Assembly: GCF_964204645.1 (NCBI RefSeq)
Contig: NC_134026.1
Coordinates: forward strand, 21,548,150-21,612,149
Source of the DNA: Tubulanus polymorphus
Lineage: Eukaryota; Animalia; Nemertea
Length of the DNA stretch: 64,000 bases
Direction of reading: 5' to 3'
The notes beneath the pieces were generated by a model. The model had not been told where the DNA came from and did no database searches. It saw only the letters and a list, made by a program, of their open reading frames with translations. The translations under genes and the position numbers were made by a program. Shown piece after piece: positions 1 to 62,084 of this stretch (its first letter is position 1; each line of letters starts with the position of its first letter).

Positions 1-1193
1 TCTTTTGGTCCACAAGATAGGTTTGTCATTTTAAGGCCTGGTCTTAGTTTCATTGCCAAGAATCAAAAGGCTTCCGTAGCAGCCAGATCTTGGAAGATCG
101 AGGCTTTGACGCATAGGGTATCTCACGATCTTCCTGATACGTCACTCTGTCCAGTAAGAGCTTTAAAGGAGTACCTAGAGAGGACACTTCCCCACAGACA
201 AGATAGGGAGAGGCTCTTTATTCCTCTCCGACAAGGGGATAAGAGAGATATCTAAAGGGACACAATCGCTAGATGGATTGTATCTTTAATTAAAGAAACT
301 CTGCATTCTCAGGGGGCCCAGGCTCCGCTCGGGATACATTCTCATCAGGTGAGGGCATTAGCCACATCCTGGTCATTATTCACGGGGGCTTCCTTGGAAC
401 AGGTTTGTCGTTCAGCCTTCTGGACGTCTCCGTCTACCTTCTCGTCATTTTATTTGAAGGACGTTTCTGGACAGTTAGGCTCACTGTCCACGTTGGGTCC
501 AATTGTTACTGCACAACGAATAAGCGTACAAAAACCCAAAAAACATTGGGCCCAGTTAGACCTTTTTAAACCAGGTCCTGGGGATTAAAGGGTTTCTTCT
601 GTATTCAGCTATAAGAAAGTTGATGTATATAAGTTGTGGGCATCTGTTACAGGGCCTAGGTTACCTTAAGACAGTTAGTGGTAAGGGTCCCTTTTGTTAT
701 AGGTATTAAGTTTAGACATGAATCATGATTTCATTTATATAGCCTGGGCAAGGCTGCGTCTAGAGTTTAAGTTTTTTATCTACTGGTTTAGGTTAATATC
801 GAGGTAATGGCAGTCAGTGCCTTACTAAGGTATCCGGGAGTCAGTTGACACCGGGTTGTTTGATTTCCTTTTTTCGACTCAAACGTAACAGGGTCATAAT
901 AGGCATGTTATTATCTACCAGTACAGTTAGGAACTGAAAAGGAAGCAGCACGGTAGCTCCCTGATTTTTGGTTTTCCACTGGCTCACCTGGGGTTTGTTG
1001 CGGTTTTCTGCAGAGAGTTTTAGGGTGAGTGTAAGTGTAGAGAATTTAAATCGACTTTTGGTCGCCTCCCTCCTCCATTCTTTGGGATTCTGGCTATAGT
1101 GTATTTTCCCAGGGAATGTATTCGAAGTAAATATTACAATTTTGTTCAAAAATTGGTATTTACGAGGAATACTTACCTGGGAAAATTACACTA
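1..1193 (+). mobile_element. 3' end of DIRS-type tyrosine-recombinase retrotransposon (within a GGNBP2 intron)
   Basis: Frame ending at 588 reads LCPVRALKEYLERT...IHSHQVRALATSWS...WTSPSTFSSFYLKDV: YR C-terminus with HxxR and catalytic Tyr. Terminal inverted repeat arms at ~1097-1135 and ~1155-1193. Confidence 0.8.
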
Positions 1194-7545: not shown

Positions 7546-10500
7546 ATGGAGAGCGAAGGCAGAGCAGATTACGTTTATGTTGCTAGATTAGCCGAACAGG
7601 CTGAGCGATATGATGGTGAGCTGCCCTGGAAATCGACAATTTGTTTACCTTCATTCACACTTGTATTGACGAAGTATTTATTTGACAGGCCTACACACAT
7701 TTCAATTCATTGACATTGCAAAAGAAGCCTACCTGTCCCTTTTATACGAACTTATCAGAGGCGGGTCTCATTGATTACCTTTTAACAACAATAGAACACA
7801 ACTATTACTTGTGTACTATCGATAATTTGACAGACTGAGACGGCAGTGTCACTGTCACTAACTGTCAATCTCCCGAGGGCGCGTGGTCTGCTGCACCCCG
7901 GTCTTAGGAAAAATACGTTCTCTCTGATAAAAGGATATATATATTTGGGAGCAACTGCAGTTAAGGTGTCCCTTATCTACCTAACCTAGTCAAATAGCAC
8001 TATTCTCTAATAACACAGCCATTGAATTGGATGGTGCCTACTAATTACCTAAACTTAAGTTAGACCGCAAAGCCTAGTTTAGCAATATCAATTCCGGATA
8101 AATGACGAGAGAAATCCCACCATGATTCAGTCTGAGATTAAATATGGGAAGTGGATATTTTGCCAATGCAGCATTATTTTAGTAAACGCTAGTTTGCCAA
8201 TGGCTATATATATATTAAGATATAGTAATAAAATATGATAATAGAATCATTATATTGGGTTTAGGATTAGGGTTTCGATAGGGTTAAGGTCTAGAGGGTC
8301 CAGAGGGTTAGGGTAAGGGTGAGGTTTAGGGTCTGTTTTTTACCCCTAGGGATAGGGTTAGGGTAAGGTGAGGCTTTATGTAGTGAAAACTTACGGATGG
8401 GTTTGAATGAGCTCGGTGGTCTAGTGGAAAGACGTTGGGCTAGCAATCTGCTGGTCCGGGTTCGAATCCCGTTCTATGCTGCTATTTTCACTAACTCTGT
8501 TCTCTACACTTTCCTTGAATTTTCTAAGTCGCGCACGTCGGTGCGCATGCGTAGCGTCAATTAGCCAATCAGAACGCGCCATTGGCAAAATAGCGTTGAC
8601 AGGAATAATGCCGCATTGGCAAAATATCACCTGCCATAGAAATACTTGAATAGAAGAGAATTTATTAAGAGCAATGTTTGGGCTAAACAGCCATCATCTG
8701 TTGTACTGATCGTACGTTGAGTACGTCTGATGATGGCTAATAGTGTTTAGCTGAAACGTTGCTCTTGATAATTTCTCCTCTGTTCTAGTATTTTTAATCT
8801 CGGACTGATCATTGTGGGATTTGTCTGGTCATCCATCATACACGGATAGTGTGTACCCTCTCGACAAATTCGGATAAAGCCTTTTTGGTGGCTTCAAATG
8901 CACAAGCCTTGTTTAATGTTTGTGGATTTCGCTATTGTGGACGACGGTAGAATGTATTCTAAAAATTTTAAGGGAATCTAAAAAAATTTAGGGGGTACTT
9001 GTCCCCCTTGAACTGCCCTTGAATGATGCAGTTACATTGTTCTACTATGGCTCTGAACTAGGTTCTACAGTTTTCGGTTGGTGTTCACTCTGTTGGAGTT
9101 AAGGTACCATAAGTTCATTTCAATGTTTTAATTTTTCAATTGAACCCAAATCAGTGGAACTCAACCGGGTCCTGGATATCAGAATCATGTCCATCCATCG
9201 TGGTAGTGGATACTTTGTTTGTTTGTTTACATATGGGTCACTTGAATTCTCGCAGAAATGGTCGACGCGATGAAAAATGTAGCCAAGCTGAACGTGGAAC
9301 TGTCGGTCGAAGAGCGAAACCTCCTGTCGGTAGCGTACAAGAACGTGATAGGTGCGAGAAGAGCATCGTGGAGAGTTATAAGCAGCCTCGAACAAAAAGA
9401 CGACGGCAAGGGCGCCGAAAAGAAAGAGCGAATTGCAACTTATAAGAGAGTGGTGAGTCTTTAATACGTGAAATGAAATGAGCTGGATATTTTTTCTTCT
9501 TTTGACGAGAATTGTGAGCGAATGTCAGCGTTTGGCAGTCCAGCGGTGATTTAATCTGATGATATCGGTCGTCGTCAGAATATTGTTCCACCTCTTGAAA
9601 AGTTGACTAACCCTCCTGACTAATAATGTTTTGAAGGGATGTTCATTTCTGTAACATCTCCGCACTCCTAATCGGTGTCGGTATTTTTTCGGGTATCCTC
9701 CCTTGTGTGTGTGCGTGTGAATGCTCCTGCCGAGAAAGGACTTTTTACACTAATTGCGTTGGTTTTCGTCTACGTTTTATTTTTTCGAATCGGTTAAAGT
9801 CATGATTCGTATTAATCGTGTGGTTATAATTCGTGGACCGAGTCACGAGGTTCCTGCCTTCACAATACCAGGTAAGACGTCGAAGTTGCTTGGCTTTAAT
9901 TAATTAAACAAGTTTTTAATGAAAATGAGAGAATGTGTTTATACATCATTCGCTTTTTGTTTTGTTTTGTTTGTTTTTCTTTTAACAATAAGAGCACTTA
10001 ACGATAATATCAATACTTGTTAACGGGAATGTTGCTGTGAAGTGGGTAAATTTTCTCGTTGGAAGGACAAATTTTAGACCTTAGCCAAAGCCACATTGCT
10101 GGTAAACTGAAGGCAGGAACGTTGATTCTAATCCTAAGATTCATGTGTAAATGATTCATCTTTTTCAGTTCAGTGCCTGTGACTTTGGCAAAGGTTCATG
10201 CCCGTGTGCGACGAATGGGCTAGGCCTGTTTGTAATATTTAAAAAAAGATATCGAAAAATTTACTCGTTGAAGTGTGTATCTTTGAATATTTTTCATCAT
10301 CATTTCAGATCGAGCAAGAACTGTTGGTAAAATGTAAGGAAGTCATATCGTTGATAGATACGTGCACACGAGATCCGTCGAACGCTGAATCTGAAGTATT
10401 CTATAATAAAATGTAAGCAGTTTATCTTGAAAATTGTATCGACGGCGTGGAACACCTCTTTTTAAACTCATCCAAACCAAAAAAATGCTGTTTGCCTGGT

Positions 10501-12516
10501 CGTCATCGTCAAAAGTCATTGCATTACTCGAGTAGCTTGCATGACTCAATTTCTTCGAAGTGTTAGTCATTTGGATATTCGTCAAGAAAATGATAGTCCC
10601 AACTAAGGCAACTTGAGCTAGATTGATAGGGGGTCGTCCATTTATTACGTACTCATCGTAGGGGTGGAGGGGGTCTTACTAAATTGCATGCATGTGTACG
10701 GAAGCGATGAAGGGCCTCGAGTTGTCGCGTTCCAACTCGACAAGTTGTCATATTTATGTCGACATATCGCGTCAAGTCGACATCATATCGTGACGTTTTG
10801 ACGATATATTTCGTTTTCACTGCCATTTTCCTCGCGACAAGACTTGAAACTCAGTCGTCATTTCACTGGCATCCTCATCTTACATTTAGACATGTCTTCA
10901 AATGACGGCTTGTCCCGTGAAAAATGGGCGAATTTGTCGTGAAAACGTCACAATATGTCGACATAAGTATGGCGACTTGTCGAGTTGGAATGCGACAACT
11001 CGAGGGGCTTTATCGCTTCCGTACATGTGCCTACAGGGGGGAGGGGGGCTAATTCTGATGCGTTTGGTATGCACAATTAACAAATCGTGAGCATGCCCTG
11101 TATACGTCGTTCAATGTCTACTACCCCTATTGTACACCGTGGGCTCATCCTTGTTCAAGAACTCGCGACTTTTTAGTACAAACGTAATGAAAGTAGGCCT
11201 AGGTCTAATCAATAAAAACAATAGTCTTTCCTTGAGTCTTCCCTTTTGTGTTAGACACTTTGGGGAGAGGGGTAACTTTGAAGGTCAGTATGTACGCAAA
11301 GGGGAGGGGGTAAATGATTTGCGTACAAGGGGGGAGGGGGTCTGATTTTACCGAAAATAATGCGTACGTAATAAATGGACGACCTCTAGTGAAAATATTA
11401 ATGAATGATTATTTTTAACAAGCCTTTACTATAGAACTTGAATGTTCGTTTAGATTTGGTTGCTGTGTCATTTTCCAGTATTAAAAAAAAAACGTCATAG
11501 GGTTCATTGATTTATTATGTATGCATTACGGGGAGGAGTGAGTGGAATTGCGTACTGTAATGCTTCATTTTGAAAAATTCAGATTTTATGCGTACGTAAT
11601 AAATGAATGATCCCATACATAATTCATGTTTTCATCCTTCTACTGCTCATTGTAACGATATTCCTTATTATGCAGGAAAGGTGATTACTATCGTTATATG
11701 GCGGAATTCACAACCGGAGAAGAACGAAAAGAGGCAATTCAAGAGAGTTCCGATGCATATAAAGCGGCGAAGGCTATTGCCGACAAACATCTGAAAGCTA
11801 CGAATCCGATTTGTCTTGGCCTGGCGCTGAATTTCTCTGTGTTTTACTACGAAATTCTCAACTCGAACGAAAGCGCGTGTCAATTGGCAAAGGATGCATT
11901 TGAAAAGGCAGTCGCTGAGTTGGATTCGTTGCCCGAAGATAGCTATAAAGATTCGACCTTAATCATGCAGTTGCTGCGAGATAACCTGACCCTATGGACC
12001 AGCACAGGTGAGTTATGTTCATAGTTGTTAAAGTGGAACCTCGTGGAAGGACCAATTGGGGGCATCTAGTTTTAGGTAAAATCTTGATCAAACATGTTTT
12101 ATGTAAACCATAAGTGATCAGCATTGGGTCAAAATCCAGATTTCATTGATCAGTGTGTTCTTCTCGTGGAATCTAATCTTATTTCAACGAAAATGGTTAA
12201 TAGTTAATTCTCAAATTTGTTGTACATCTGTGATGGAATTCCACACTGCTGCGCTTGTTGGTTCAGTTGCTATTTAGTGGTTTCATCTCAATTGGTGAAC
12301 TCATAGTCTTAAAAATCAGCTATATTTTACATCAAATTTTGATCATTATAGATAAGAGGGTTGTCATTTAATTTATCTTAATTTTGAAAATACATAACTG
12401 GTGTTTCAAAAAATGTAAGTCGTAGATGTTTTTAAATTCCTAACGGGAGATTCATTAAATTTTCAGAAGCTGAAAACCAGTCTGCAGATGATGATGTTGA
12501 TCAGGACGAAGCCTGA
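7546..12516 (+). CDS. YWHAE: 14-3-3 epsilon-like protein, gene 1 (5 exons, divergent paralog)
   Basis: Exons 7546-7615 ([23 protein letters not shown]), 9256-9452 ([22 protein letters not shown]), 10309-10412, 11676-12007 (KGDYYRY...[19 protein letters not shown]), 12467-12516 (acidic tail, TGA). Phases consistent; AATAAA at 13276. Confidence 0.93.
8151..8631. mobile_element. Non-autonomous TIR element with degenerate TTAGGG-like tract and tRNA-like A/B boxes
   Basis: TIRs GATATTTTGCCAATGCAGCATTATT / AATAATGCCGCATTGGCAAAATATC. GGGTTAGGGTAAGG repeats ~8257-8372. TGGTCTAGTGG (~8417) and GGTTCGAATCCC (~8459). Confidence 0.6.
8644..8865. repeat. Inverted pair of a dispersed repeat with hammerhead-like core (Penelope-like)
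   Basis: 8644-8697 is the reverse complement of ~8729-8790. The inverted arm resumes at ~8102-8145, beyond the 8151-8631 insertion. Another copy lies on - at ~59250-59385. Core CTGATGA-T-GGCTAA...TTAGCT-GAAACG at 8727-8758. Confidence 0.5.
9850..10196 (+). promoter_or_regulatory. Conserved intronic RNA-pairing module A/B/C with cryptic splice sites, 14-3-3 gene 1 intron 2
   Basis: A 9850-9876 (GTTCCTGCCTTCACAATACCAG|GTAAG), B 10077-10120, C 10178-10196 after TTTTTCAG. A:B gives 13+6 bp; B:C gives 17/19 bp. Homologous to 16954-17385. Confidence 0.75.
10629..11386. mobile_element. MITE flanked by TA, with nested palindromic element (~10689-11029)
   Basis: TIRs GGGGGTCGTCCATTTATTACGTAC / GTACGTAATAAATGGACGACCTC. 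Internal long inverted repeat CGGAAGCGAT...CTCGACAAGT...GTCGACATAT mirrored at ~10940-11027. Related short copies at ~11498-11614, ~22569-22830 and ~25373-25503. Confidence 0.8.
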
Positions 12517-15062
12517 ATGAAATGATGTCGGCATCAGTTCAGAAAATATTTATAATGGGGAGGGTGGTCATCGGATGAGTAGTATAAAGTGTTTCCGAGG
12601 TTGGAGTTTCATGGCCCTATTGAGGGCTTGTAGCAACGTGTTACTTGTCAAAAAAAAAAAGTTTATTTTTGTTTGTCAGTCGTACAGATTGAATGACCCA
12701 GCAATGAATCTGCAGCAACGGCCGATCCCAAATACATTCGATGCTGAAGGTTTAAACAGTCAGTGGTGTCAGCGCTTGGTGGTAGGCCCTGGATATACAT
12801 GTATATCGTTTGATGAAAAAAAAAATAGAAAAACTTCAGCCTTACTTTAAACAACAGTTTTGAATTGTGTGGATATACTGAACCATCGTATATGTATCCA
12901 TAGTGGACCTGGAACGGTTCATGAATATTCTGTAGAATACATTTATAAACTAGTTATATCCATCAAACCTGATCGGAAGAAGTAACATTTAAAATTCCAA
13001 GTTCTACAGATGGCGACAGGCGATAGGAAAAAATGTCTGTTGCCTATTTCTATGTAAGCAGGGTTAGGACACGGAAGTAGAACGCTCTTGCCACTCACTG
13101 AAGTTTTGTACTAAACATTCTATTTTTTTGTAACGCGTCAACTTGATTTATTCAGTATTTATATATTCTTGGATATACATGCCTTAATTATCATACATAA
13201 TAGTAGTACTTGATTTTAATACATGTAGTCTAATTTATTTGCTGTGTGTGAACTATAATTGTGATATTAATCGGAAATAAAAATTTCACTAAAAATTCTC
13301 GTGTTTGTGTTAGCATTGGACTTTCATTTCTATTGTTAAACCTGATTAATGTGGATCGGATCCAATTGACTTCCAGCTCTGGTTCACCTATTCATAAATG
13401 TATGGAGATTAGGGAAATCTAATAGATTTCTCGCATAAACTGGGCTTAATTCTGTTAGTTCCAGATGATCTGCATTAAGCAGGGTGTACTGTGCAAGGGT
13501 TAGCGTACTTGCCTAGAAAATTCAGCGAATCTGAGAAATCTAGAAAAAATTAGGGAAGTTTGACAATTTTCGCAAAAATCTTCGGGAATTTGGGTATGCT
13601 ATGGCCATGTGCTTCTTGATCAATACCAGCTAGTTTGTGAAAAAATTATTAAATTGTAACATTGCATACTCCAATGAATTTCTCCATTCGCCTTCCGATT
13701 CGCTTTGGAATTTTGTGCTACGACATGGATAATACACAAGACTTGAAGTTCGGAAAGTTGCCACCCAGATGTTGCAAATTTCTCATTGCATGATTTTATT
13801 TTGATCGATTTGTTTGTGTTACTCTTGTGGCGCTTGGCTTATGATTGGCCAGTAGCTAAAATTTATGAGTTTCTGTAACCATGAATTCCAATTGTTACCA
13901 ATCGGTATGCGTTTTAAGTAGAAACTAGCCCACAAATTATCGACCAAATCAGAGATAAGATAATTAGAAATAGTGCATTAGTCTTAGACCGATTATTAGA
14001 AGACCTTTTGTTCTTGCAGTGTATACATATTTTAGTAGTGGACGAAATTTAATGATCGTTGTTATTTGTGACGAGAATTCTGGTTCATTTCTTATTTTCT
14101 TTGTGCTTGTTAATGATAAACGGAAGAAACGGTTTATTCGAAATTCTAATCTAGCTTAATAATACTATTACACTTGTTGCCAAATGAATCGATATCTGAG
14201 TCAGCACGGTGAACACGGGTGTGGGTGGTTTCTGGATGCGCGACTTCGAGGTGCGCGCACAGTCATAGACAGTACTGGGCAGTGCTGTGACGTACGACAC
14301 GACGAGCGTCCGCCACGCGCCTGCTGGTCTATTATTGGACCGTGCTGTATATAAATTTCTTAATATCGCGCCCGCACCGGTTTTGACTGGAACTGGTATA
14401 GAATCGAACTTGCTCGATACGCTCGAGCGCTGACCGTTGTTGTCTCTGCAAGTTACTTCGCGTTTCGGTATGTAGCAATGCGGTACTGATTCATTCAACA
14501 CACCGAAACGCGGAAGTGACACTGCCCATTGTAGCCATGGTAACGACGTGCGTCACAACCGCCTCGCGCACTTATTCCCCGCCGTGTACAACCGCGTGAG
14601 GAAAAAGATCGTGGGTGGTCGTGCGCGTAATCTCCATATTGAATAAGCGCCCATCTTTTTGAGTGCAAAATATCCCTCAACAACTGACCCAAAAATCATA
14701 AGATAATTTACGTTCGGAAGACCATTTAAGAAATAATAAGATCGTGTCGCCATTTTAAGGAGAGGAGTGCGATATTTTCTTTGAAATGAAGATTAAGAAA
14801 GACCCGAAAATCTCATTATGTTTATTTACTGATTAAGACTCTGCTTTTATAAATTTTTAGCGAATAAATCTGTCAAAATAGACGTGTTTCTGATTGTTTT
14901 CGTTTGTCTTTGATTTTATTACGATGCGTTGAAAACGCGAATTGTTGCGATCAAACTGGTAGGATTTGCGCAGCGTGCATTGATAATCATTATTCACCTA
15001 GCGTAAAAGTAGGCTAACTCCGCCGCGCGCGCATTGATATAACTAAGCTGTCTCTACGAGTA

Positions 15063-15161
15063 CTACTTTCACTGGCGGGCGCGGCCATCTTGTAAATTTC
15101 ACAGGAGATCATTCCGTCAAAAAATCTGCGTTAAATCGTCGCATATTCACAACCATCCGCC
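15063..15161 (+). promoter_or_regulatory. Core promoter/5'UTR of 14-3-3 gene 2 with YY1-like GGCCATCTT
   Basis: Homologous to 7450-7545; CpG-rich context. Confidence 0.6.
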
Positions 15162-16015
15162 ATGGACACTATAAACAGAGAAGATCATGTGTACACAGCT
15201 AAATTAGCTGAACAAGCCGAACGTTATGACGGTAAGTCCTTTACATTATATCTAGTTTTAGACGATACGTATTTTCCGCTGAGAAATCTTCCTCGGCTTG
15301 ATGATCGACGCCCTGTCTCAATAAATGCACTGGTTTATGGGCTCATTTTTATCGCGGCTTAGCTATAGATAGAAATTTCGTTTCAAATCTTTGATGTTGT
15401 TAGCGTTAGTTTTTTGTCAATCGTAAATAACTAGCAAATCAATCGCGTACGATTTTGATGTATCGTCATTGTATTTGTACGACCTTTTTATTTGCCCTGC
15501 CCCCTTTTTTTATTGCCTGAGAAAAGGGTCCTTATGATTTTGCTTGTCTTGTTGCAAGAGGGCGAGGTGAATGCGAAAATATCATCAATGCATTGACAAT
15601 GAAGTAAACTTGAGCCCCAGCGAGCATTTGTAATTGTTCGTGAAGACCAAATATATTGATATTGATCACATGATAGTGGCCTGAATTTCTGATGAAATGC
15701 TTAATGTACCAGACCGTTCTACTCCTGTCTTATCGAAGTCATTTATATGAAGAATGGTGCATGCATAGGAGGAGGAGGCTATGTCTTGGATGAAACGGAA
15801 ATGCTATTTATCTTACAGAAATGGTGGATGCCATGAAAAAAGTAGCCAATCTAAATGTAGAATTGTCGATAGAAGAACGAAATTTGTTGTCGGTAGCGTA
15901 TAAGAATGTGATAGGAGCTCGAAGATCATCTTGGCGAATAGTTTGCAGCTTAGAATTGAAAGAAGATTCTAAGTCAGCTGAAAAGAGAGCTAAGATCGCA
16001 GAGTACAAGGCAGTG
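15162..16015 (+). CDS. YWHAE: 14-3-3 epsilon gene 2, exons 1-2 (putative constant exons)
   Basis: 15162-15231 ([23 protein letters not shown]|GTAAG) and 15819-16015 (MVDAMKKVA...[10 protein letters not shown]...IAEYKAV|GTGAG), ending in phase 0. Confidence 0.93.
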
Positions 16016-16953
16016 GTGAGTTTGGAATAAATTTTTGATGGGTGTTTTCTTGTGATGTAGAAGTCGAGAATTCGGCGAGATATTTCCACCATTTTTCGGG
16101 GGTTTTCTTGCCTCGTAATTGAGGTCATCAATTAAGTTGGTCAATAGAAGGCTCTGATAGTAGGCGTCAGTGCATTTCATGTCATACGTAATCTGCTGCC
16201 TTTGATCATAATGAATCATGTAGTGGCTGGTTTGTTCAAGATTTAGATGCTGGATGGTATAAACTGAATGTTTTTTATGCAGGACTTCAGCCGTCAAGGT
16301 TCATTTCATATCTTAGAGCATACAATGCGTTAATGAATCCTTAATGATGATGATGCTGCCCTGTTTAGGGCCAATCCTTATATGCATACTGTTAATATTC
16401 CATATTAAACTTTCGACAATGTTCCTTATTTGAATTTTGATTAGTTGCATGTTAGCTTGATAATTAGGTGGAATTGAATGATATTTTTGACGATTTTCCT
16501 TGTCGCCACTGTAATCGATTGACTTCAGTGATTATCAAAGTAGCTTTTTTATTCTACTTTAAGGTATTTCACTATTGGATGTATTAATGTTAGGCATTGT
16601 TATACTTTCCGAAGTAATCTTTGACATGGATCTCGAAGTAATCTATGACTTCCGAGATTGTGATTTGGTATTAGGCTGGGTAACAGTGACACTATCCTAT
16701 TCCTGTTTATCACATATATCTAACCATACAACATTGCAATAGTATGAACCATGATTTCTGTAACATTTCTGCGCTGTCTTTTTCAAACGTGTTAACTGAA
16801 ATACGGGTTGATTGTAATGGAAAGGTTGCTTACTGTCAATTGCGTTCACGTAAGACTAGGATTTCCATATGTATAATATGGCTTGAATTCGAAGGTGAAA
16901 TTATATTTTTTGCGATATGTCGATGGCTTTAATAGTTGAGGAGAAGTAACAGG

Positions 16954-17385
16954 ATTCCTGCCTTCAGACTACCAGGTAAGCTAAAACCTGATTTTGCTTG
17001 GCTATTGTCTTTAACCAATTTCGTATTTTGTATCTAACACCTCGAGAATCTTCTCTTGTATCATCTCATCATCAGTTAAACCGATGGAACCCTCTTTTTG
17101 AAATGATCCATTTATTTGAATAATAACCTTGGCTAATATTGATTAAAATTTGAGCCTGCATGGTGTGCTTTTATCTCGGGAGTACCTCAGTGAGACTACT
17201 CTTAGTAGTCAAAAGTGCTTCTAATGTGCCTTATCCTGGGATACTTAATTATATATAACCTTAGCCAAAGCCATAGCTGAGCTAACCTGAAGGCAGGAAT
17301 ACAGAGTTATGACAAGCGTCGTTATTGTTTGGCAAATTATTTGTCTTTTTCAGTAAAGGGTATCTGTGGCTTTGGCTTAAAGGTT
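16954..17385 (+). promoter_or_regulatory. Conserved intronic RNA-pairing module A/B/C with cryptic splice sites, 14-3-3 gene 2 intron 2
   Basis: A 16954-16980 (ATTCCTGCCTTCAGACTACCAG|GTAAG), B 17257-17300, C 17364-17385 after TTTTTCAG. A:B is a perfect 14 bp; B:C gives 6+14 bp. Confidence 0.75.
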
Positions 17386-17488
17386 TAGATAGATATTTCT
17401 GAATAATGAATGCGTCTGACTGGCCGCCTTAATCACTTAGTGTGACTTCCTTGAAGAATAATCTTCTTTTTTTTTTTTGTTAATTCAG

Positions 17489-18698
17489 GTGGAGAAAGAA
17501 TTGGAAGAGAAGTGTAATGATATCATCAGTGTGATAGATGACCACCTTGAGCCGGCTGCGAATAATGCAGAAGCGAAAGTATTCTACAATAAAATGTAAG
17601 TTTAACAATTTGTGGCGTTGTCACTGACTTCAAGGTTCATATTGATTTGATTGTTTGATAACAGCTAATCTCATTGTGTATTATAGGAAAGGTGACTACT
17701 ATCGTTATTTGGCCGAGTTCCGAAATGGTAATGGCCGCAAGACAGCAGCTGAAAATAGCCTGGAAGCGTACAAAGCGGCGTCAAAAATTGCCGAAAGTGA
17801 TTTACAGCCGACAAATCCGATTCGTCTTGGTCTGGCGCTAAATTTCTCGGTGTTTTATTTCGAAATCCTCAATTCATCCGAACGAGCGTGTCGGTTAGCG
17901 AAGTCTGCATTTGACGAGGCGATCGCCGAACTCGACACATTGAACGAGGATTCCTACAAAGATTCTACCTTAATCATGCAACTACTGAGGGATAATTTAA
18001 CTCTGTGGACAGGTAAGGAAAATTTTTAGCTCACTTCGGACTAGCAGCCCAGTAAGCTATCGCGTTCACTTGTTCTCTTTCTTACATGGAAACTTTGATG
18101 ACGCTTCAATGGATTGTCTTGGAGGATCAGAAGTTTGGTTATTATATATCTGCCCTAGATACTTCTGCCCAAAAACTGGCCTGATTAGGATGAAGAAGAT
18201 CCTAAGCTTAATGGCATGTTAGGACTGGTACCTGTGCATATTATGTAACCTCAATTAATAACTCAATTCTAGCTCACTAGTTTTATGTGTGGTGAGTTGC
18301 AAGCTCATCGAGACACTATTAATTTGGTCACTAGGGTATCAGATTGTCAAGCTTTTCACCAAGTGGTCATCTTGTCCTTGAGTTCAGTTGATCTTAGGAA
18401 TTAACTTCAGCCCGGATCCACCCTTTCAGACGCACCATTGAGTGATGTCTTGATGATCAATGAATGGTGATGTCCAATATCTGGTAATGATAGTTTTTGA
18501 TTGAAAATGTCTGGTGTTTTTTGATTCTGTAAATCCTGACAGATCAAAATTGTGGATGATTTCGGGCTGATCTCCTTTAGTTCTTGCATCATCAATGAGA
18601 ACCTCCCAAGTTCAAGGCTAGGTTATTCTTGAGAGTACTTGTTTTTATTTTCAGATGGACAGGGTCAAGCTGAGGAGGCTGAAGAGGAACGCACTTAA
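17489..18698 (+). CDS. YWHAE: 14-3-3 epsilon 3' cassette a (exons 3a-5a)
   Basis: 17489-17595 (VEKELEEKC...AKVFYNKM), 17687-18012, 18655-18698 ([14 protein letters not shown]). AATAAA at 20787. Confidence 0.92.
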
Positions 18699-21600
18699 AA
18701 ATTGTCGAATCTTTCCGAGTTAATTGAACTGGAAAATGTTATATTTGCTTGGATATATTATAAATAATTATAATTATTGTCATATTTTGTATGATTTCTC
18801 GTCGCGCAAGGAGTTACATCTGTACATTGATGGGGATCATATTTTTACCGGGATGATTGATAGTTTAAATCAGATGATTAGCAGCAGTTCAGTTACTAGT
18901 TGGCAAATCTTATTTTGGCGTCTACGGTGCTAAGTGTAATTGATCAGTTCAAAAGGGGGCGTGGGTTCAGGCTGTATTTTTTCTTCTTCCAAGTTCAGGT
19001 ATCCACAGAAATTGCTTGTTGTATTTCGTAGTCGCATCCTTCTGTTGTGTTTGTGATTCGTATTATAAGAGGTTTTGGTCTAGACGTCATGTTTACTTTT
19101 TGAAAGGCAGCATTTTGGCTCTAACGCAAACAGCAGATGTACCTCCTGTTTACTGTGTTCCTTACAATTCAGTCCCATTCCAAAATAACAACATTCAACT
19201 TGCTGTAGCATCCCCCAAATAGTTAAGGATCTTTCCAAAGTCCATTGTCTGGAGCAATCTGCACTTAATGAAAGTTCTCAAATCTTGAAATACCAAGCTT
19301 TGCTCATCTCAATTAAGTTATTTTTCAATTTGTTTTTTTATGATATGTATAATTCTTGCGGATCTTGGTTTTAAGTTCCCTTTAAACAATTGCATATCAG
19401 TAGAGGTGCACTCGCAATCACAGAACTCGCTTAAAACACATAATTTCCTTAGTGCAGGAAATTCTTAGCACCTTGCAGATTTTTAAGATAAACTGATTTC
19501 TTTTGTCGATGAGGTCATTTCTGGAGATTTTATTTGTTTTCTAAGTTAGATATGAAACCATTTTCAGAGTACGGAAGATTCCTCCTCGCTTGGTGCGGGT
19601 CAATTATGTTAACCGAGTGAAACGTATTCGGTAAAACCTTCTTCAGATTCTCTGATTTAACTACTTGTCTTGGTGATGAATCTGGCACGGCGGAGTCTGC
19701 TATGTGCATGCACTATGTTTCTATCGTTTATTCGTTTGTGTAAGATGATACAAAATTACTTGGATATTCAGTAAGGAGGCTTCTTTCGTGGATAGACATT
19801 AGATAAAGAGAATTGTGATAAGCCACAGTCTAAGATTGCGGAGAATCTTTTGGGTTTACGGGTCTTGGTATACGCGACATGCACCTTGGGATGGTCAATT
19901 ATTTGTACGTTGATTGGTGTCATGTTGGACGGGCACGCTGATGGCCCTAAGTGTCTTGAATCTGGTTTATTATAATACCGCCTGTAACTTCCAAGTACAT
20001 GGTCACAATGAGCTTGAAAAACTGCTGCGGTACTTGGAGGGTATCAATCTGTAGCTTCCCTTGTGACTTAATACCATTGATCATTGTCTGATCTTTGATG
20101 ATCAATTTTTGCGAACGTTAATGGCTTCTCCCAAGACGTCATACAGCAGCACACTTTTCAGAAGGTCGTTGTGTAGACACTTCACAATGCAATGGTAAAT
20201 GTCTTTTACATAAATCCCAGTTGCAGATTGATCTGCATATGATGCACAATGCTTAGAATTTCTTTTTAAGTTAGTCCGATACTAGTCCTTAAATTAAGTT
20301 CTGTGAGGTTGTCGATAAGGGTTCATTTTATCATCGGTCTAATTTTTTACGTGTCATCGTTTTCTGCTCATCTGTTCAATATCTTCTGACAATCACTCAA
20401 TATGTTTCACGAAAGCCTTGTGTAATTAGAGAGGAAAAATGTATACCCAACTGCTCCACTGATAATTGTTTGGATCGATGACAAATAGTAGTTAAGTTTT
20501 CTGTATGTGTTTTCACTTTGAATAGTAATCTAGTTGTCGCATTGTATTTTCATGTACATACAAACATATCTGTGAAGAAGCTATTGATATTCTAATGTCT
20601 CTGATAGGTTACACAGTCGGGTTTAGCGAGCGAAAAAAAATAAATGTCTCCGATATATTTCCCAGTTACTGCGGTCGTTTGTCGAATCGTCGAGTTCACT
20701 GTTCCCTATTATTAGTAGTATGATTTTTGATTATTGCTCTAATCAGTATCTGTCTTTGTGTGCATGTGTGAAGCTTTTGATACAATAATAAAAAGAACAC
20801 AGGTGAAATTAAAAAAAACAAAAAATGGCTTGATGAAGTTATTCAAACACATTTTCGGTCCGTGTCCCTCGTCGTTGTTTAGAGATAGTTTTCGTTCTGA
20901 TTTTCGGGATTGTATCAGCCAGTTGTCAGGTACGTGGAGATAGATGGCTGCTACTTTCGATCTCGACTCGAAAATTAAGGTAAGAATCATTCGTAGTAGA
21001 CGTCATTTGGTAGTTGTGATGTCGGAGTAGTGTAAGGAGCAGTCGCTTGTGTAAGGATGCCTCAAATAATTAAATGCGAGCTTGTCAATTCCGCTCGGAC
21101 TTGTAGTCGCGACCTCAAGGAAATGCTGCGCACGCGATTTTTTTCCCCATCTTCAGACGATTAGTATATTTTGCGCTATGAATTTGTCAAGTTTTACCCT
21201 GAAAAACAAGCAAATAAAGAGTGATGGATTATATTGTCGGCTTATCATGTCTGTAGTGTTGTTTTATGGAGTTGAGGGTTTTTTCATTTTAAGATATTTG
21301 CGGTGTTTCGAATACCGGAGGCGTGTAACTGTCCGGTGTATTTTGTACATTATTATTCTGGATTGAATCCTGGCTTTTTTGTCGAGGTGATTGAAGTTGA
21401 AACCAAAAGAAAAAAATGCTAATATCAGCGTTACTGCTTCTTACACATACGTGCTTTGTGTTCGATAATTGGACATTCTCAAATACACGCGCAGTTCCCC
21501 AAATTACGTCATGAATTCATTCCAAAATAATGATGTACTGAAAAAAAAAAACGTATTGAATTTCAACAATCGCAGAAATGTTTACAGAGATCGATGACTA

Positions 21601-21987
21601 TTTATAGGGATGAAATTATTTTCTATTTCGGCCAGAACTGTTGGATATTTGAGATTGTTTCTGTTTTGTTGTTCTTGTTTGTTTTTTCTCGGCTATTCGG
21701 TCTACCTAATCTATTGCAGTTAGTTATCATTGTTCCATCGGTTTTCTTTTCCAAAAGTATCTGGCTGGTATGTTAATGGAAAATGTTTAATTCCAAAAAA
21801 ATTTGCGTGTCCGTATATGGTTCATTATCTAGGCGCAACTAACAAAATTCTGATCAAATTTCTTCTTAGATTAGTCACTCCCTTGCCAATTGCCGTCTGA
21901 TATTTATGTTGATACATTGAATTGTGCGTAACCCGTATATTGTGTCGTCTTGTGTTTGTAATGTTATGTATTTTTTGTAATTTTCAG

Positions 21988-23013
21988 ATCGAAGGTGAGC
22001 TCGAACAAAGATGTAAAGATATACTGGATCTTCTCGATGATTATTTGATTCCAGCTTCGATAGATCCTGAGGCTAAAGTTTTCTATTTTAAAATGTAATT
22101 ATCATTATGAATTTGAAGATATTCGTATCTGCTGATTATCGATTTTGTTATGGTAATTAATGTCTCGTGTGACTGACAGTTCATTTCATTTTTTCGTTTA
22201 AAAGGAAGGGCGATTACTACAGATATTTAGCAGAAATCGCGGCCAAAGATAAATGCGAGGAAATAGCCAAAGAAAGTAACAATGCTTACGAGAAGGCAAC
22301 CGCGCTTGCCGAAGAACTAGCTTCGACCCACCCCATCCGACTTGGATTGGCATTAAATTATTCTGTCTTCTTCTATGAGATTTTGGCAAAGCCCGAGGAC
22401 GCGTGTAAAATGGCGAAGAAAGCCTTCGACAACGCGATCGCTGAATTAGAGTCTCTCAAGGAGGACAGCTACAAAGATTCCACACTGATCATGCAGTTGC
22501 TGCGAGATAATCTTACTTTATGGACGTCGGATATGGATGGTACGTATCTCTCTCCCAGTATCCGAGTTAGGGACTATACGTTCATTATGTACGCATAAGA
22601 ATTTCGACTTTTTTACCCCCCGCCCCTTGTATGTAGTGAAGAAAAAATGTTATCACAAAGCTAGGAAATACCTGTATTGATATTAGATTGGTAGCATTGT
22701 CTCGTGATTAGTTTTTGGCGTATTGGCTTGAGCCTTTCGTTGAATGGCTGTATATATATATAAATCATTAGTTTGTGTTCTCAGTCCCTCCCATGCACAG
22801 GCTAGTATGCACAAATGAATGGTCCTCTAATATCCAAGTTCTTGGAAGAGTGTGGATTGGAATATTTAGGGATCTGATTGTTGAATAAAATAATCTAATG
22901 AAGTGATTTTCGTCATGAAATGGTTTTCGTCAGATTTGATAATCCGTTCAGTATGTTTTAAAATATTTTCAGGCGATGAAGCGAAAGTTGAAGACGTCGA
23001 TGATGATAACTAA
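21988..23013 (+). CDS. YWHAE: 14-3-3 epsilon 3' cassette b (exons 3b-5b), no exons 1-2 of its own
   Basis: 21988-22094 (IEGELEQRC...AKVFYFKM), 22205-22539, 22973-23013 ([13 protein letters not shown]). Intact frame, phase-0 acceptor TTTTCAG. AATAAA at 23770 and 24263. Confidence 0.9.
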
Positions 23014-25924
23014 AACTAAGTGGTGTCATTCCTTTGACTCATCTAGTAATCCAATGTTTTTCTTGTTACGTTCACCCATTGGCGAGGATACCTACTATTA
23101 ATCCTGTGGATGGGAGAACTCCAAGAGAATTACTGGTTCAGATCTGGATATAAACAGAAAGGACTGATCACCATTTCATCATGTTACTTCGGAATAACTA
23201 TTGAGAAGACTTAACTATTTTGACTGGAATTCACTGTGTCCGCTTGTGATAATTTAACTATTAATTATTGATATCATATATTTTTTTTTGTTTTGACTTA
23301 ATGACGGAGGTAGTCATATAATGCTGATAAAGCAAGCGGGACTTGTGCCACCAAGGAAGATAATGTGGCGATATATTTATTCCCCCCAGAGAGACTTTGA
23401 TTAAAAAAAAAAATAGTGTTTACCTAAGTTAACCAGAGGAAATGGTAGTAATTATTAGAAATTTCATATTGCTTTTTAACTTAAAAATCATTAAAACATC
23501 TTTCACAAAATTAGATCAGTTTGGTTTTGTTTTGAACGTCATCGAGTTTGTAGTTTTAAAAAAGATGAAGTTGTTGTCATGGCATGCAACACTAACTAAG
23601 AGAGACTGATAATGGACTAAATGAAGGAATATTTGGAATCTGTTCACTCGTCGTCTATGCAGATTTATGTTTTAGAAGCGACAATTATATCCATGCGGCT
23701 ATAGTGAACTGGTGCTTTGGTGTCGATTACGGCGGCTAAAATTCAATTGAGTCTCGTACCTAATACGAAAATAAAAAATCATCTAGGCATGAGAGCTGTT
23801 AGTGTTGCCTGTATTCAAACATCTTAGGTTCCACATTAAAAAGCTTTGATGGTTCATAAATAACTATTCAATCAGTTTTCGTTGATTATTCAAGGTGTGC
23901 TGTTGTATTGTTTTATTTAGCGAATCTTAAAAAAAAACTGTATTGTTATGATGATAACTCTCTCAATTCTGATGTTGCTCGTTTTTGCGTTTATCTCTTC
24001 GAATGATGATGATGATTATCAAACCCCCTGTGTTATACTTGTCGCTCTTCGTCGCCAAAGAGAGCTATATTCAACTACTACTTGCGTACTCAGTTGGTTG
24101 AGGTTCAATTCTATCCGGCAAACAATGAATGAAATGAAGCCTTGGTTCGAAAATATGAATGTTCAATTGCAGGGAGTTCATCAGATGAAAAATTCAGATA
24201 TTTTCTGCCATATATTATATGCATATAGCGAACAAATTTTTAAGCATACACGTATTGAGTTGAATAAAATAAATGCAATCTTGGTGTCTTGATCCTTAAA
24301 CTCTTCTGAGTGCAGTGGATGTTGATTTGTTCAGTGTGCGTGTGTGTGTCCTTCCTTTATCCTTGATGACTTGCGCTTCGAAAAGAGAAAGATTTCTCCC
24401 AGTTGCTTGAAAGCTGAATTTAGTAAAGTTATTTCAAAGGAGTATTTGACGGGTTACTTAAGAGCCGATCGTCTTTAAGATTCGGTCTGAAGAACGCTTA
24501 GTCGCAATGCGAGGTGGGCGAGTTGCCTCTCTGACAGTCGTCAAAAATAGAATGTACCATTCTTCGATGATGCTAATGACTGGTCTGCGATCGGTATTAA
24601 TAATCTAGGGCTCATGTCACTGATTCTGCCATCGCCAATGCCACCTAACAGACAATGGGGTCAGTTCTTTCGTGACCTGAGTAAGGCCTAAATTCAATTT
24701 TCAAGGAACTGGTGCCTGTATAGATTATGGCTATTTCGTAATGTTTTTTAAGTGCAAGCAAAATGATAAGGGGAAGGTATGGTAGATCCATTAAATAGCT
24801 GATAGGAATAACTACTTTGTATCTGGCCTAGCAATTTCAATTATACCACTTCATGGGATAATGTCATTAAGAATTTTGAGTTTTTGAATAAAATTTGACA
24901 TTACAACGGAGGAAATCATCCTATCGAATTTTGTTTTCATGCATGTTTGATGAGCAAATTTCGTGCTGTGTTCGGCTTGCGGTGAATGCATCCTGTGCGC
25001 GAGGAATTTCGCCAGACCAGCTCGGACTATGATTTTTAAACTACAATCGGATCGTCCGTCCCATTCTAAGAGAAGCTCATGTTGATATGTTATTTCTCTA
25101 CGAGGGCTCATTTCTATTTCATCATAAATAATTATGTGCTTACACAATTATCCCCTTGATGCCACTGTCATACTTCTGCGTTCATATCTACCTGGTCCAG
25201 TAGTACGTCTTCAGGTGTGTGCATATCCTTTGTTGTGTTGGATGCCGGTAGTTATAAATTGCGATGTATGGGATCCTCTCCGTGCAGGTATTCACACTAA
25301 AAGAGTGGCTGAGCTGTTTTCACAGTTCGAATTCAGCGGTATCTGCTGGGCATCGAATGACAATTTCTGGCTTGGGGTCATTCATTTATTTCGCATTGGG
25401 GGAGGGGTCAATGTATATGAAAAAATGGCCGATTTTGTGTACAGAGGGGGAGGGGGTTGAAAAATTTGAATTTTATGCGTACGTAATAAATGAAAAATCC
25501 CCTTGTCAGGGAAATGAATATTTAAGTTCCCAGGATTAATATACATGTAACTGAATATCAAATTTTTCCTGGGACAAAAGGAAATATTTGGAACTCACAT
25601 TTTTTCCGAAGTGTCCTCAAAGGACGAATAGTCCTTGAATTCATTCATTCTCAACAAGCCCTGAATGCTGTTGAGATATACTTATTCCTATGAAATTCTT
25701 GTACGTAAATAACAATTGAGAAGTAACTACTGTCGACTGCCTTACAATTGAATCAGGAAATTTTACAAACACTCAATTTATACCCTATTCCCATACTTAA
25801 TTCAGTAGGTAATTAATTGGGGAAAATCTCAGAGTCATAAGTATGTCAAATCTTGATAGTAAGTTGTTTATAAATGATGAAAGAAAACATTCTTAACAGG
25901 GCGGTATTCCATCTATATTTTTAG

Positions 25925-27132
25925 ATAGAGAAAGAATTGGAAGATATTTGTAATGATATACTGCTAGTTCTGGATGAACATCTAATCAAGAATGCAGAAT
26001 TTGACGAAGCCAAGGTGTTCTACCATAAAATGTAAGTAAAAATGAAAATAATGTATCTGATTCCATAATGCCAGAGACCCTTGTGGCTCTGATCCTTCAT
26101 TCATCTTGTTCCATATGCCCTTTGAAGTGACAGTCCTCGAAGTTTTCGTAAATGTTCTCCCTCCAAGTAAGAATTTGAACAGCAGGCCATTTTGAGAGTT
26201 CCCGTGGTCGAATTTTACAACTCGTCACACTCTGGAACTAGCCCCGGAACAGTCAACCACCCTTCATTTTTATCCGCTATTCCCAGCTGCTACCAAGTAA
26301 AAGCTTAGTCGTGAATTTATTAATGCTTTTAGTTTCTGATTTTCCGATAGTGGTGGATAACCAGGAGTTGACTGCATATTGTGCTAAATGACTGTGAATA
26401 ACTCAACTGATGTAGAATATGATTTTCAGGAAGGGGGATTATCATCGTTATTTGGCCGAGTTCGCCATTGCACCCGGAAGAAAAGCGGCGGCTGACAAGA
26501 GTTTAGAATCTTACACGAAAGCTCAGGAGATCGCAGGTAGTCTGCCGACCACTCATCCAATTCGTTTAGGGCTAGCTCTGAACTTCTCGGTGTTCTACTA
26601 CGAAATTCTGAGTTCGCCGGAGAAAGCATGCGGTCTCGCGAAGAAAGCGTTCGATGACGCGATCGCCGAACTGGACACGTTGAGCGAGGAAAGCTACAAG
26701 GATTCGACGCTGATCATGCAGCTCTTAAGAGACAATCTCACACTGTGGACAACTGACATGAATACTGAAGGTTCGTTCAATATCTTTTATTTTAATCATT
26801 ACTTGATTCCTTAAAAACTCATTCTAAACGGAAATTGTTTTTGAAGGTGCTTGAAACGCCTTTAATTTGAGAAAAATGTCGGAAACTCTATTAAAACTAC
26901 AATAACTTTGAGAAATAGGCGATTAGGTACTTACGAAATTGTATATTAGACTAAAAATCAAACCAAAATCAGTACATTTTGAACCAGGATCTTTTTCCTC
27001 AATTTGATTGGCAGTAGCCAAATTAGAAACTAAGTTTGATAATGTCAATTGATAATGCCTTGCAATTTTTCAGAAGGCGACAGTGCCAAGGCTGAAGACG
27101 CCGAAGACCAAGCCCAGCAACCTCAATCATAA
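25925..27132 (+). CDS. YWHAE: 14-3-3 epsilon 3' cassette c (exons 3c-5c), most canonical epsilon sequence, no exons 1-2 of its own
   Basis: 25925-26031 (IEKELEDIC...AKVFYHKM), 26430-26770 ([12 protein letters not shown]...[20 protein letters not shown]...[32 protein letters not shown]), 27074-27132. Long AU-rich 3'UTR, AATAAA at 29982. Confidence 0.92.
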
Positions 27133-59949: not shown

Positions 59950-60464
59950 GTCTGTGATGGGTCAACGTAAAACAAAACAAAACAAAATTAGATATTGGGG
60001 ATTTATAAATATATGATGGGACTTCATTACTGAAACAGCCGTAGAGGTCACATGCATTTTAGAGATAATTTTCACATTTGTCTTGATATACTGCTAATGA
60101 ATCAATTTGTGATATGGTCTGGTGATAAAATGGACTATTCATGACAGCTTGCCACAGTCCCACACGAATTGTACATAAAGAAAACAAAATCAGTGAAAGT
60201 CGCATTTCATTCAGACCCTTCATTCCGTTTTTGGAAGGCATGATTCATATGCAAATTGTAGATTCTTGAAAACGATATTTTTGGGAGTTGTCGAGAACTG
60301 GAAAAAGAAAGAAAAGTATACAGAAATAATTTGAACGACGGTAAACTTTAGTAAGGTTAAAGGGGCGGGGCGAAAGATGACGAAAGAACAAGAGTCAGTC
60401 TGGTGACTTGAAAAGAAACTCACGTGTATGTATACATTCTAAAATCCACAACATTTTCCACAAT

Positions 60465-60647
60465 CTACCCAAGGCAGCAGATTTGGCCGTTACATTGAAA
60501 AACCCCGAAAACACCACTCTCATTTGATTGGCAACTTTTCCTGCATATTCCCGAAATTCCGTGATATATGGAGCAGTAGGTGGTCGCCTCTGCCATGATG
60601 CCGGTGATCATTGAAGCAGCCAGAAGAACGATAAAAAGATACTTCAT
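60465..60647 (-). CDS. Secreted beta-defensin-like peptide 2
   Basis: Signal peptide; C-x9-C-x3-C-x12-C-x4-CC-LG; TATA-like TATAAGTA ~60 nt upstream. Confidence 0.78.
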   Translation of the reverse strand: MKYLFIVLLAASMITGIMAEATTYCSIYHGISGICRKSCQSNESGVFGVFQCNGQICCLG

Positions 60648-61892
60648 TTTTCAACAGATGATAACGTACCAAAATGAAATGGCAGGTTACAAATATACAA
60701 TCGAATACTTATAGTTTGTGACCATTTCCTGAGACCCATCTGACAAATTTACACGATTATATATATATCTAATGACAAATCAGATAAACATTAAAAAACT
60801 GCAATGATGAAATACGTACAAGGATAATGTACGTACAAGGATATTTTTCCTGTCCAAGGTTTCCGCTGAAAAAAATAGATTTATATTTCAATATATATCT
60901 TGCAATTTTTTCTTTCATTCTGTTCATCATTCTTCTGCGTCAATTCGTCTTGAAGCAGCTTGCAGACAACAGGTTACTCTGAAGGTTCTCGATTCTCGAT
61001 TCATGAATTATACACATATCTACATATACTGTAAAGATTGAAATTTTGAGTGTTTGAATAAATAAGTATATACATGTATAAAATCTAATCACAGTCCCTC
61101 GTGGGAATATCACAGTTATTGACCTACGATGGCGCTGTGCGATAATTTTGCGTGAATATTGCAGTACGTGTGGGGATATACTAATGTTTTCGGGGTTTAT
61201 CGATACTCGCCAAAACGGATTTTTTGAATAGAAAACTCGTCTTTTCCGAATCCTTCATTCGTGTACCACAGCGAAGCACGCTATTCACATCAGATATAGA
61301 TAGAGATACCCATAGATATGTAATATTTTTTATGCTTGTCCAAGCGAAGTCCCTTTTCGATTGTGTTCTTCCGGAAGATTACTTTCTCTTTCGATAACCG
61401 GGTCTGGAGCCAATTCATCCTCTAAAATCCGAAATATCGAATCATCCGTCCGTCCGTTGACGGAATCCAGTTATTTTGGGAAGTTTTGAAGACGCTTCTG
61501 TGGATTGTCTTGATATTTGGTCTATACATGTAACTACCTTAGATACATCTGCTGCCAATAAATGAGTAATAATAGACTGGGTTCGAACCTGGGACACCCC
61601 TGTTTCAATCACGCAGAAGCCATCTATCCATCACTAATTCACAAAAAAACTCGACAAGAAATAATATTTATTACACATTTTTTATTAGAAGAGATGTATC
61701 GTAATTCCTAATTAATCATTGCAGTTGTCGAGAACTGGAAAATTAAAACAAAAACAGTATATATAATTAGAAAAACAAAACTTGACGAAAGATGACGAAA
61801 ATATGAAGAAAAGAGTCAGTTTGGTGCCTTGAAAAGAACACAGCAAGGACAACTCACGTGTTATACATTCTTCAATCCACGATTTCCGAAAT

Positions 61893-62084
61893 TTACCCAA
61901 CGCAGCAGATTTGGCCGTTACATTGAAAATGCCCGAAAACACTTCTTTCATTGGATTGACAACTTTTCCTGCATATTCCCGAAATTCCGTGGTATATGTA
62001 ACAGTAGGTCGTCGCCTCTGCTTCGATGCTGGGAATCAATGACAGAGCTACTGTAGCCAAAAGAACGATAAAAAAATACTTCAT
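61893..62084 (-). CDS. Secreted beta-defensin-like peptide 3
   Basis: Close paralog of peptide 2 (YCYIYHGISGICRKSCQSNERSVFGHFQCNGQICCVG). Confidence 0.78.
   Translation of the reverse strand: MKYFFIVLLATVALSLIPSIEAEATTYCYIYHGISGICRKSCQSNERSVFGHFQCNGQICCVG

Follow-up and report, generated by a model that had tools for sequence, protein, structure and literature searches.

How can a splice donor pass over a complete, polyadenylatable cassette lying directly behind it and join one farther downstream? Such skipping is a general problem in 3' variable genes, and it is raised here by a 14-3-3 locus of Tubulanus polymorphus. Within the window, i.e. the whole 64-kb stretch of DNA analysed, tblastn of 14-3-3 recovers exons 1-2 twice and exons 3-4 four times, giving the gene order N1, cassette 1a, N2, a, b, c, with all cassettes in order on the same strand (Table 1). 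Both genes are 14-3-3 epsilon-like, and cassettes b and c are without exons 1-2 of their own by the same search. Since 14-3-3 proteins dimerise via their N-terminal helices and bind clients largely by the rest of the protein, combining two N-terminal modules with four back halves would allow partners and dimers to be varied separately. The modules N1 and N2 differ at 12/23 four-fold sites, and cassettes 1a and a at 17/34; the latter are nevertheless the closest pair of cassettes at such sites, suggesting that gene 1 may have arisen by copying N2-a, intron 2 included. The same exon 2 followed by different back halves was found in two pairs among 345 proteins from the matches listed, both of them from this locus.

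Table 1. Coordinates of the 14-3-3 modules, cassettes and intronic blocks in the window.
Feature	Position	Strand	Description or basis
5' module N1	7546-9452	+	gene 1 exon 1 (7546-7615) and exon 2 (9256-9452); 14-3-3 epsilon type
Block D1	9645-9666	+	19/22 identical to D2; the three differences fall at D2:E_b pairs
Block A1	9850-9876	+	B-pairing arm, ending in the cryptic CAG/GTAAG donor (cut after 9871)
Block A'1	9886-9895	+	10/10 identical to A'2; weak partner of the 5' half of B, rival of C
Block B1	10077-10120	+	two-armed antisense guide, by complementarity
Cryptic tandem acceptor and C1	10159-10197	+	first bases 10169 and 10174; 140/135 nt ahead of exon 3
3' cassette 1a	10309-12517	+	gene 1 exons 3-5
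5' module N2	15162-16015	+	gene 2 exon 1 (15162-15231) and exon 2 (15819-16015)
Block D2	16752-16777	+	predicted docking site for cassette b
Block A2	16954-16980	+	cryptic donor, cut after 16975
Block A'2	16994-17003	+	sequence comparison, duplex energy
Block B2	17257-17300	+	duplex energies, alignment to B1
Cryptic tandem acceptor and C2	17344-17386	+	first bases 17354 and 17359; 135/130 nt ahead of exon 3a
3' cassette a (coding part)	17489-18699	+	joined to N2 in RNA contigs
E_b	21570-21593	+	predicted selector, by complementarity to D2; about 395 nt upstream of the cassette b acceptor
3' cassette b (coding part)	21988-23015	+	lacks own exons 1-2; N2 join in RNA contigs
3' cassette c (coding part)	25925-27130	+	lacks own exons 1-2; N1 join annotated in RefSeq XP_074643840.1

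The joins between front and back halves were read from assembled contigs, which lose rare joins, of sequencing runs X2, X5 and X6, which are RNA-like with GT..AG joints; runs X1, X3 and X4 contain no splice joints. The N1-1a join occurs in contigs of three RNA runs from two studies, and N2-a and N2-b (joints 16014>17488 and 16014>21987) occur in contigs of X2, X5 and X6, again from two studies. RefSeq annotates four proteins from the locus, N1+1a, N2+a, N2+b and N1+c, the last requiring a join that passes over 16.5 kb, the whole of gene 2 included. No N-c joint is present among the 15/46 joints listed for the RNA contigs. The cassette c contig in X5, however, has 111 letters ahead of exon 4, where exon 3c accounts for 107 and the genome fits 108. 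In a k=31 de Bruijn simulation, such a 4-letter lead arises only if both exon 2s, whose last four bases are in common, enter c; the lead is 28 letters with one exon 2 into c and 1 letter with the intron plus one. We infer from this contig boundary that both N1 and N2 probably join c in X5. Given the joins to b and c, each front module must at times skip the cassette directly behind it.

Three further observations concern transcripts from the locus. An X2 contig spans 13350-15170, from the 3' end of gene 1 to exon 1 of gene 2, and X5 has none there; it is compatible with read-through but does not establish a single transcript. The X2 contig of c starts about 157 nt inside the intron (25768-25924) and that of X5 starts at the exon, so that a separate transcript start ahead of c is possible. 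Between cassettes a and b lies a 50-nt stretch (20930-20979) with AG/GT at one edge and a strong donor at the other, for which no joint is found among the 15/46 listed; the neighbouring 20998-21019 can pair over the A1 donor (-22.7, z -2.8).

As to what could bring about the skipping, a sequence-only reading had proposed that intron 2, otherwise unalignable between the two genes, shares three blocks A, B and C. Local alignment of the two introns bears this out, with all three at the positions given there. The B-C region scores 62 and block A 48, whereas 300 dinucleotide shuffles average 25.3 and reach at most 35, and the remainder of intron 2 scores at the shuffle level. Block A is identical at 24/26 positions and ends in both genes with CAG/GTAAG, an 8-mer with four plus-strand occurrences in the 64 kb, two of which are A1 and A2. 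Block C directly follows TCTTTTTCAG, which occurs twice on the plus strand of the window, both times at C. Block B is 44 nt long in both genes; its two arms are identical (16/16 and 13/13), and its spacer is identical at 5/13 positions with its length of 13 nt retained. Considering the extent to which the paralogs differ at four-fold sites, the intact identities point to selection, in a comparison that rests on two copies. Among the rows listed, the polymorphisms in X2 include none in A-D or E_b and are too few to count. The module A-B-C is found only ahead of the first cassette after each N, with no copy before b or c and no further copy in the 64-kb window. To these blocks our analysis adds A', D (alignment score 29) and the two extra 3' cassettes.

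The crossing helices that the sequence-only reading had drawn are reproduced by duplex predictions in both genes: the 3' half of B pairs with A at -30.7/-25.5 kcal/mol (gene 1/gene 2, here and below), and its 5' half pairs with C at -23.0/-29.7 kcal/mol. In addition, A' pairs with the 5' half of B (-12.0/-13.1), occupying the same bases that C binds, and the 3' half of B pairs weakly with the pyrimidine tract and AG of C as well. Taken as a whole, B forms a duplex of -41.9/-38.1 kcal/mol with A and A', and one of -34.6/-39.1 kcal/mol with C and its acceptor. By a rough estimate, the crossing state lies -8 to +6 kcal/mol from the uncrossed ensemble, the value varying with the gene and with the penalty assumed (7-15). 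Three near-equal states of B are thus predicted, namely B with A and A', B with C plus acceptor, and the crossing splint. Competing states had been mentioned as an alternative in the sequence-only reading, and the rivalry of A' and C for one arm and of A and the tract of C for the other gives this alternative more support than it had there.

The strength of a single helix is not what supports the pairing. The B:A helix alone scores 31.5, and shuffle maxima are 33.5 and 35.0 (100 shuffles each), so that it is not beyond the best shuffle; the support comes from both arms having been retained in each paralog. The G-C to A-U swap at the terminal pair, which had been put forward as compensatory, is indeed present, but as a single event between two sequences it is weak. 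Together with two one-sided wobble changes, it makes a thin case, since one two-sided and two one-sided changes between two sequences cannot establish covariation. The TACCAG/CTGGTA helix was likewise recovered, in gene 1 only; gene 2 retains the motif without its B partner, so these six bases before the donor would have been kept as a signal. In the predicted fold of gene 1, most of the toehold on B is already paired by the time C emerges, and the first state leaves the donor largely unpaired, which makes the caging step unclean. Over both introns, the X2 contigs show no A>G difference between RNA and genome, a comparison in which only majority editing is detectable.

Our preferred reading, to which we assign a probability of roughly 0.45, is a switch in which A, A', B and C exchange strands during transcription. 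It would act on a cryptic donor and acceptor and slow splicing to the nearest cassette, with D:E_b looping to b. In the emerging RNA, B is predicted to pair first with A and A', whose helices would close around the strong donor. On emerging, C would displace the weak A' helix to give the crossing state, with the donor beside the cryptic acceptor; alternatively, C would take the whole of B into a hairpin that hides the acceptor. Exposed decoys would occupy U1 and U2AF, rivalling the exon-2 donor, which is weaker, and the acceptor of exon 3, 135-140 nt farther on, and this competition would delay the removal of intron 2 until the distant cassettes are transcribed. The architecture of the locus then gives the likeliest reason why the element was retained in both paralogs. 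It counts against a brake that cassette b is also passed over en route to c, and yet no module lies ahead of b.

For gene 2, the looping step would rely on D, located 205/200 nt upstream of A, which is predicted to pair with E_b, loop out A-C together with cassette a, and bring exon 2 near b. E_b is the best partner of D2 in the 64 kb (-30.9, the next being -22.1) and an outlier among 182 tiles (z -6.5). The duplex energy is reached in 0/60 query shuffles and 0/14 target shuffles, and the alignment score in 0/100 shuffles. It counts against the pairing that 1/66 unselected 22-mers equalled the energy of D2 against the downstream 10 kb. Taken alone, the similarity of D between the paralogs ranks at the 90th shuffle percentile. 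Between D1 and E_b the energy is no better than -17.2, the best partner of D1 elsewhere reaching -23.4, and no good D partner was found before a or c. Docking therefore leaves the N1-c join unexplained, and a dock and selector are supported for gene 2 and cassette b only; the window scan gave D a single selector rather than several. Among candidate pairings for c, that of 16344-16367 with 25894-25914 was matched or exceeded in 7/18 shuffles, 17232 did not exceed chance among gene 2 tiles, and 9461 and 9717 in gene 1 reached only z -3.3. Internally, D2 (16754-16775) is a tandem of two 11-mers that resemble each other. Of its first 13 bases, all shared with D1, 12 are complementary to the exon-2 acceptor of gene 2 (15810-15822); its second half is complementary to the exon-2 acceptor of gene 1 (9251-9260). 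E_b (21570-21593), which is similar to the latter acceptor, could derive from an exon-2 acceptor since lost; alternatively, D1 may hide exon 2 of gene 2 in read-through RNA.

The cryptic sites themselves resemble functional ones. The donor of block A matches the consensus CAG/GTAAGT, which may not mirror the U1 of this species, at 8/9 positions, compared with 6/9 at both exon-2 donors, and 2/12 real donors score 8. The first acceptor of C ends in TTTCAG, as do 7/14 real acceptors. The hypothetical A/C junction formed via the second AG measures 46 nt in gene 1 and 50 nt in gene 2 and pairs end to end with the 44-nt B at -56.0/-54.6 kcal/mol; the collinearity of B with this junction, claimed before for gene 1, thus extends to gene 2. 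Block A also has a recursive AG/GT layout, with a pyrimidine tract and AG directly before the donor. The tract has 12/17 pyrimidines with only 5 T, below every one of 14 real acceptors, and exon 2 is not joined to the base after this AG in any of the 5 joints listed for the X2 and X5 contigs. A branch-point-like motif lies 27 nt before the AG in both genes (9841-9846 and 16945-16950) and would fit the use of A as an acceptor.

This geometry raises the question of whether B guides the excision of an intron nested in intron 2, as the sequence-only reading had supposed. In that case B would splint the donor of A to the acceptor of C, and removal of the ~300-380 nt between them would change the partners of exon 2. 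The two sites are conserved and of consensus type, B is collinear with their junction in both paralogs with a spacer of fixed length, the crossing state is predicted to be energetically reachable, more so in gene 2, and such intermediates are described as short-lived in a preprint on intrasplicing (bioRxiv 10.1101/159350). The splint geometry thus stands, but the splicing does not follow from it: 0/4 nested junctions appear among the 5 joints listed on 9380-17620, all of them canonical and from contigs of X2 and X5, and the X2 contigs run unbroken through both intron 2s and all four cryptic sites. Because rare joins are lost from contigs, as seems to have happened to the N-c joins, these data neither show nor exclude the nested splice. 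A helix over donor bases should hinder U1 and U5, and in gene 1 the helix covers positions -6 to -1 of the donor, where such access should suffer; moreover, the exon-3 acceptor would remain after excision, which would then have no obvious purpose. We consider this possible but unlikely. A timed version, in which B is freed from A' once C is made and then splints the hidden donor and acceptor, so that the inner splice picks the back half, appears to us rather unlikely as well. If it held, the choice would cover four back halves with two front halves, including a join over an entire nested gene.

The same blocks could serve ends other than the choice of a cassette. In one such reading, the element would control the dose of 14-3-3 and would require no distal cassette: C would offer exon 2 a poison acceptor, masked while B and C form their hairpin and uncovered once B binds A and A' instead. 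All 4/4 paths from exon 2 to C run into a stop codon (after 0, 2, 9 or 53 codons) upstream of two remaining introns, the B:C state covers the pyrimidine tract and AG, and the distance from C to exon 3 is conserved (140/135 nt). An exon 2-to-C joint is absent among the 5 listed, where NMD would conceal it; dose control by itself accounts neither for the conservation of the donor nor for the fixed spacer length or block D, and we hold it to be improbable. A still slimmer prospect is trans-splicing after the manner of TSA/TSB in mod(mdg4), in which U1 would bind the A donor as a pseudo-5' site and the B:C structure would act as an enhancer, with N1 and N2 joining cassettes on other transcripts. 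Common exons followed by an intron with a conserved strong pseudo-donor and conserved structure are described for that system (PMC4387717). An N1-c join in cis must traverse three cassettes with poly(A) signals, the X2 contig of c begins within the intron, and the pairing of B1 with A2 and C2 equals or exceeds that of B2. All these points have to be set against the uniform strand and order of the cassettes, the lack, in the 5 listed joints, of any join running backward from N2 to 1a, and the X2 contig compatible with read-through. Nested excision, a poison acceptor and trans-splicing are not exclusive of our preferred switch, with which each is compatible. By far the least probable explanation is that the blocks are neutral, left over from an inverted duplication or from a dispersed repeat that was carried along when the gene was duplicated. 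Each helix singly is within the upper shuffle range, and one origin before the duplication would account for the common layout; identical arms of 16, 13 and 10 nt in paralogs so divergent at four-fold sites, a remaining intron that scores like shuffles, and the lack of a third copy in the window argue otherwise. Contigs of the DNA run X1, which may itself be the source of the window sequence, are unbroken over A-C, unlike at the repeats 10755-11029 and 11580-11854, a result that excludes only near-identical repeats.

The internal guide sequence of group I introns (P1/P10) is an intron-internal strand complementary to both splice-junction flanks, and B is similar in this respect. It differs in that the sites here are of the spliceosomal GT-AG type, the arms are 13-22 bp, and there is no ribozyme core, Rfam over 9400-26100 giving nothing at the gathering level and one chance match at E 0.6. 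If the splint is true, B would be an internal guide sequence within a spliceosomal intron, for which we found no precedent by title or abstract opening among papers available without subscription. A metagenome scan with the two arms of B returned five hits, all GC-rich and none with 14-3-3, A or C.

With regard to 3' variable genes, competing RNA pairings operate in Drosophila PGRP-LC, CG42235 and Pip, and the PGRP-LC pairing also masks a neighbouring 5' splice site (PMC6191721). As described there, the PGRP-LC type shares with the present locus common 5' exons, tandem multi-exon 3' cassettes, and an intronic dock pairing with a selector before a cassette. Here, on the other hand, one selector is supported (for b only) rather than several competing for one dock, two 5' modules are interleaved and have a cassette in common, and the main element would be a switch acting locally, with B at its centre, on a cryptic donor and acceptor. 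Like mod(mdg4) and lola with their TSA-TSB elements, the locus carries, in the intron behind its last common exon, a conserved structure and a pseudo-5' site that is both strong and conserved, with variable 3' exons following (PMC4387717); the pseudo-donor differs in lying inside the structure and being paired with a cryptic acceptor, and no backward join is found among the joints listed. Unannotated intronic sites steer or stall an outer splice in 4.1R intrasplicing and at decoy exons (10.1101/159350, PMC7373989), and the accessible portions of these two papers do not describe an antisense guide inside the nested intron that pairs with both flanks. In mite sDscam-beta, two neighbouring clusters swap variable and constant parts with the help of intronic pairing; it is the 5' cassettes that vary there, whereas the 3' two-thirds of 14-3-3 vary here (PMC9258826). 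We found no paper on 14-3-3 isoforms or splicing in nemerteans or Tubulanus in the literature open without subscription. Our verdict is that the element is real and unusual and would represent a new form of RNA-pairing control of alternative 3' cassettes. Being compact, present in two copies and bordered at the nucleotide level, it is a direct target for minigenes.

Some minor observations concern the distribution of the cassettes and the surroundings of the locus. At either end, the two transcript contigs P0062 and P0063 are similar to the N2+b isoform, and cassette b may accordingly be common to relatives of Tubulanus. Two bivalve gene models, P0001 from Mercenaria and P0002 from Pinctada, each consist of two fused tandem 14-3-3 units that start at exon 2, hinting at tandem 14-3-3 cassettes in other spiralians. 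The introns of the locus contain short dispersed repeats (10695-11025, 11318-11614, 25434-25501 and 22570-22598), one of which has inverted ends. Judging by motifs, we take the left end of the window (1-560) to be a tyrosine-recombinase-like fragment, followed by what is presumably a GGNBP2-like gene ending near 3950; the downstream part (27000-58000) presumably carries FTSJ3-, eIF3c-, TYW1-, RAD1- and DNAJC30-like genes on the same grounds. Farther downstream, at 60371-63226, lies a direct duplication of 1.4 kb with 72% identity.
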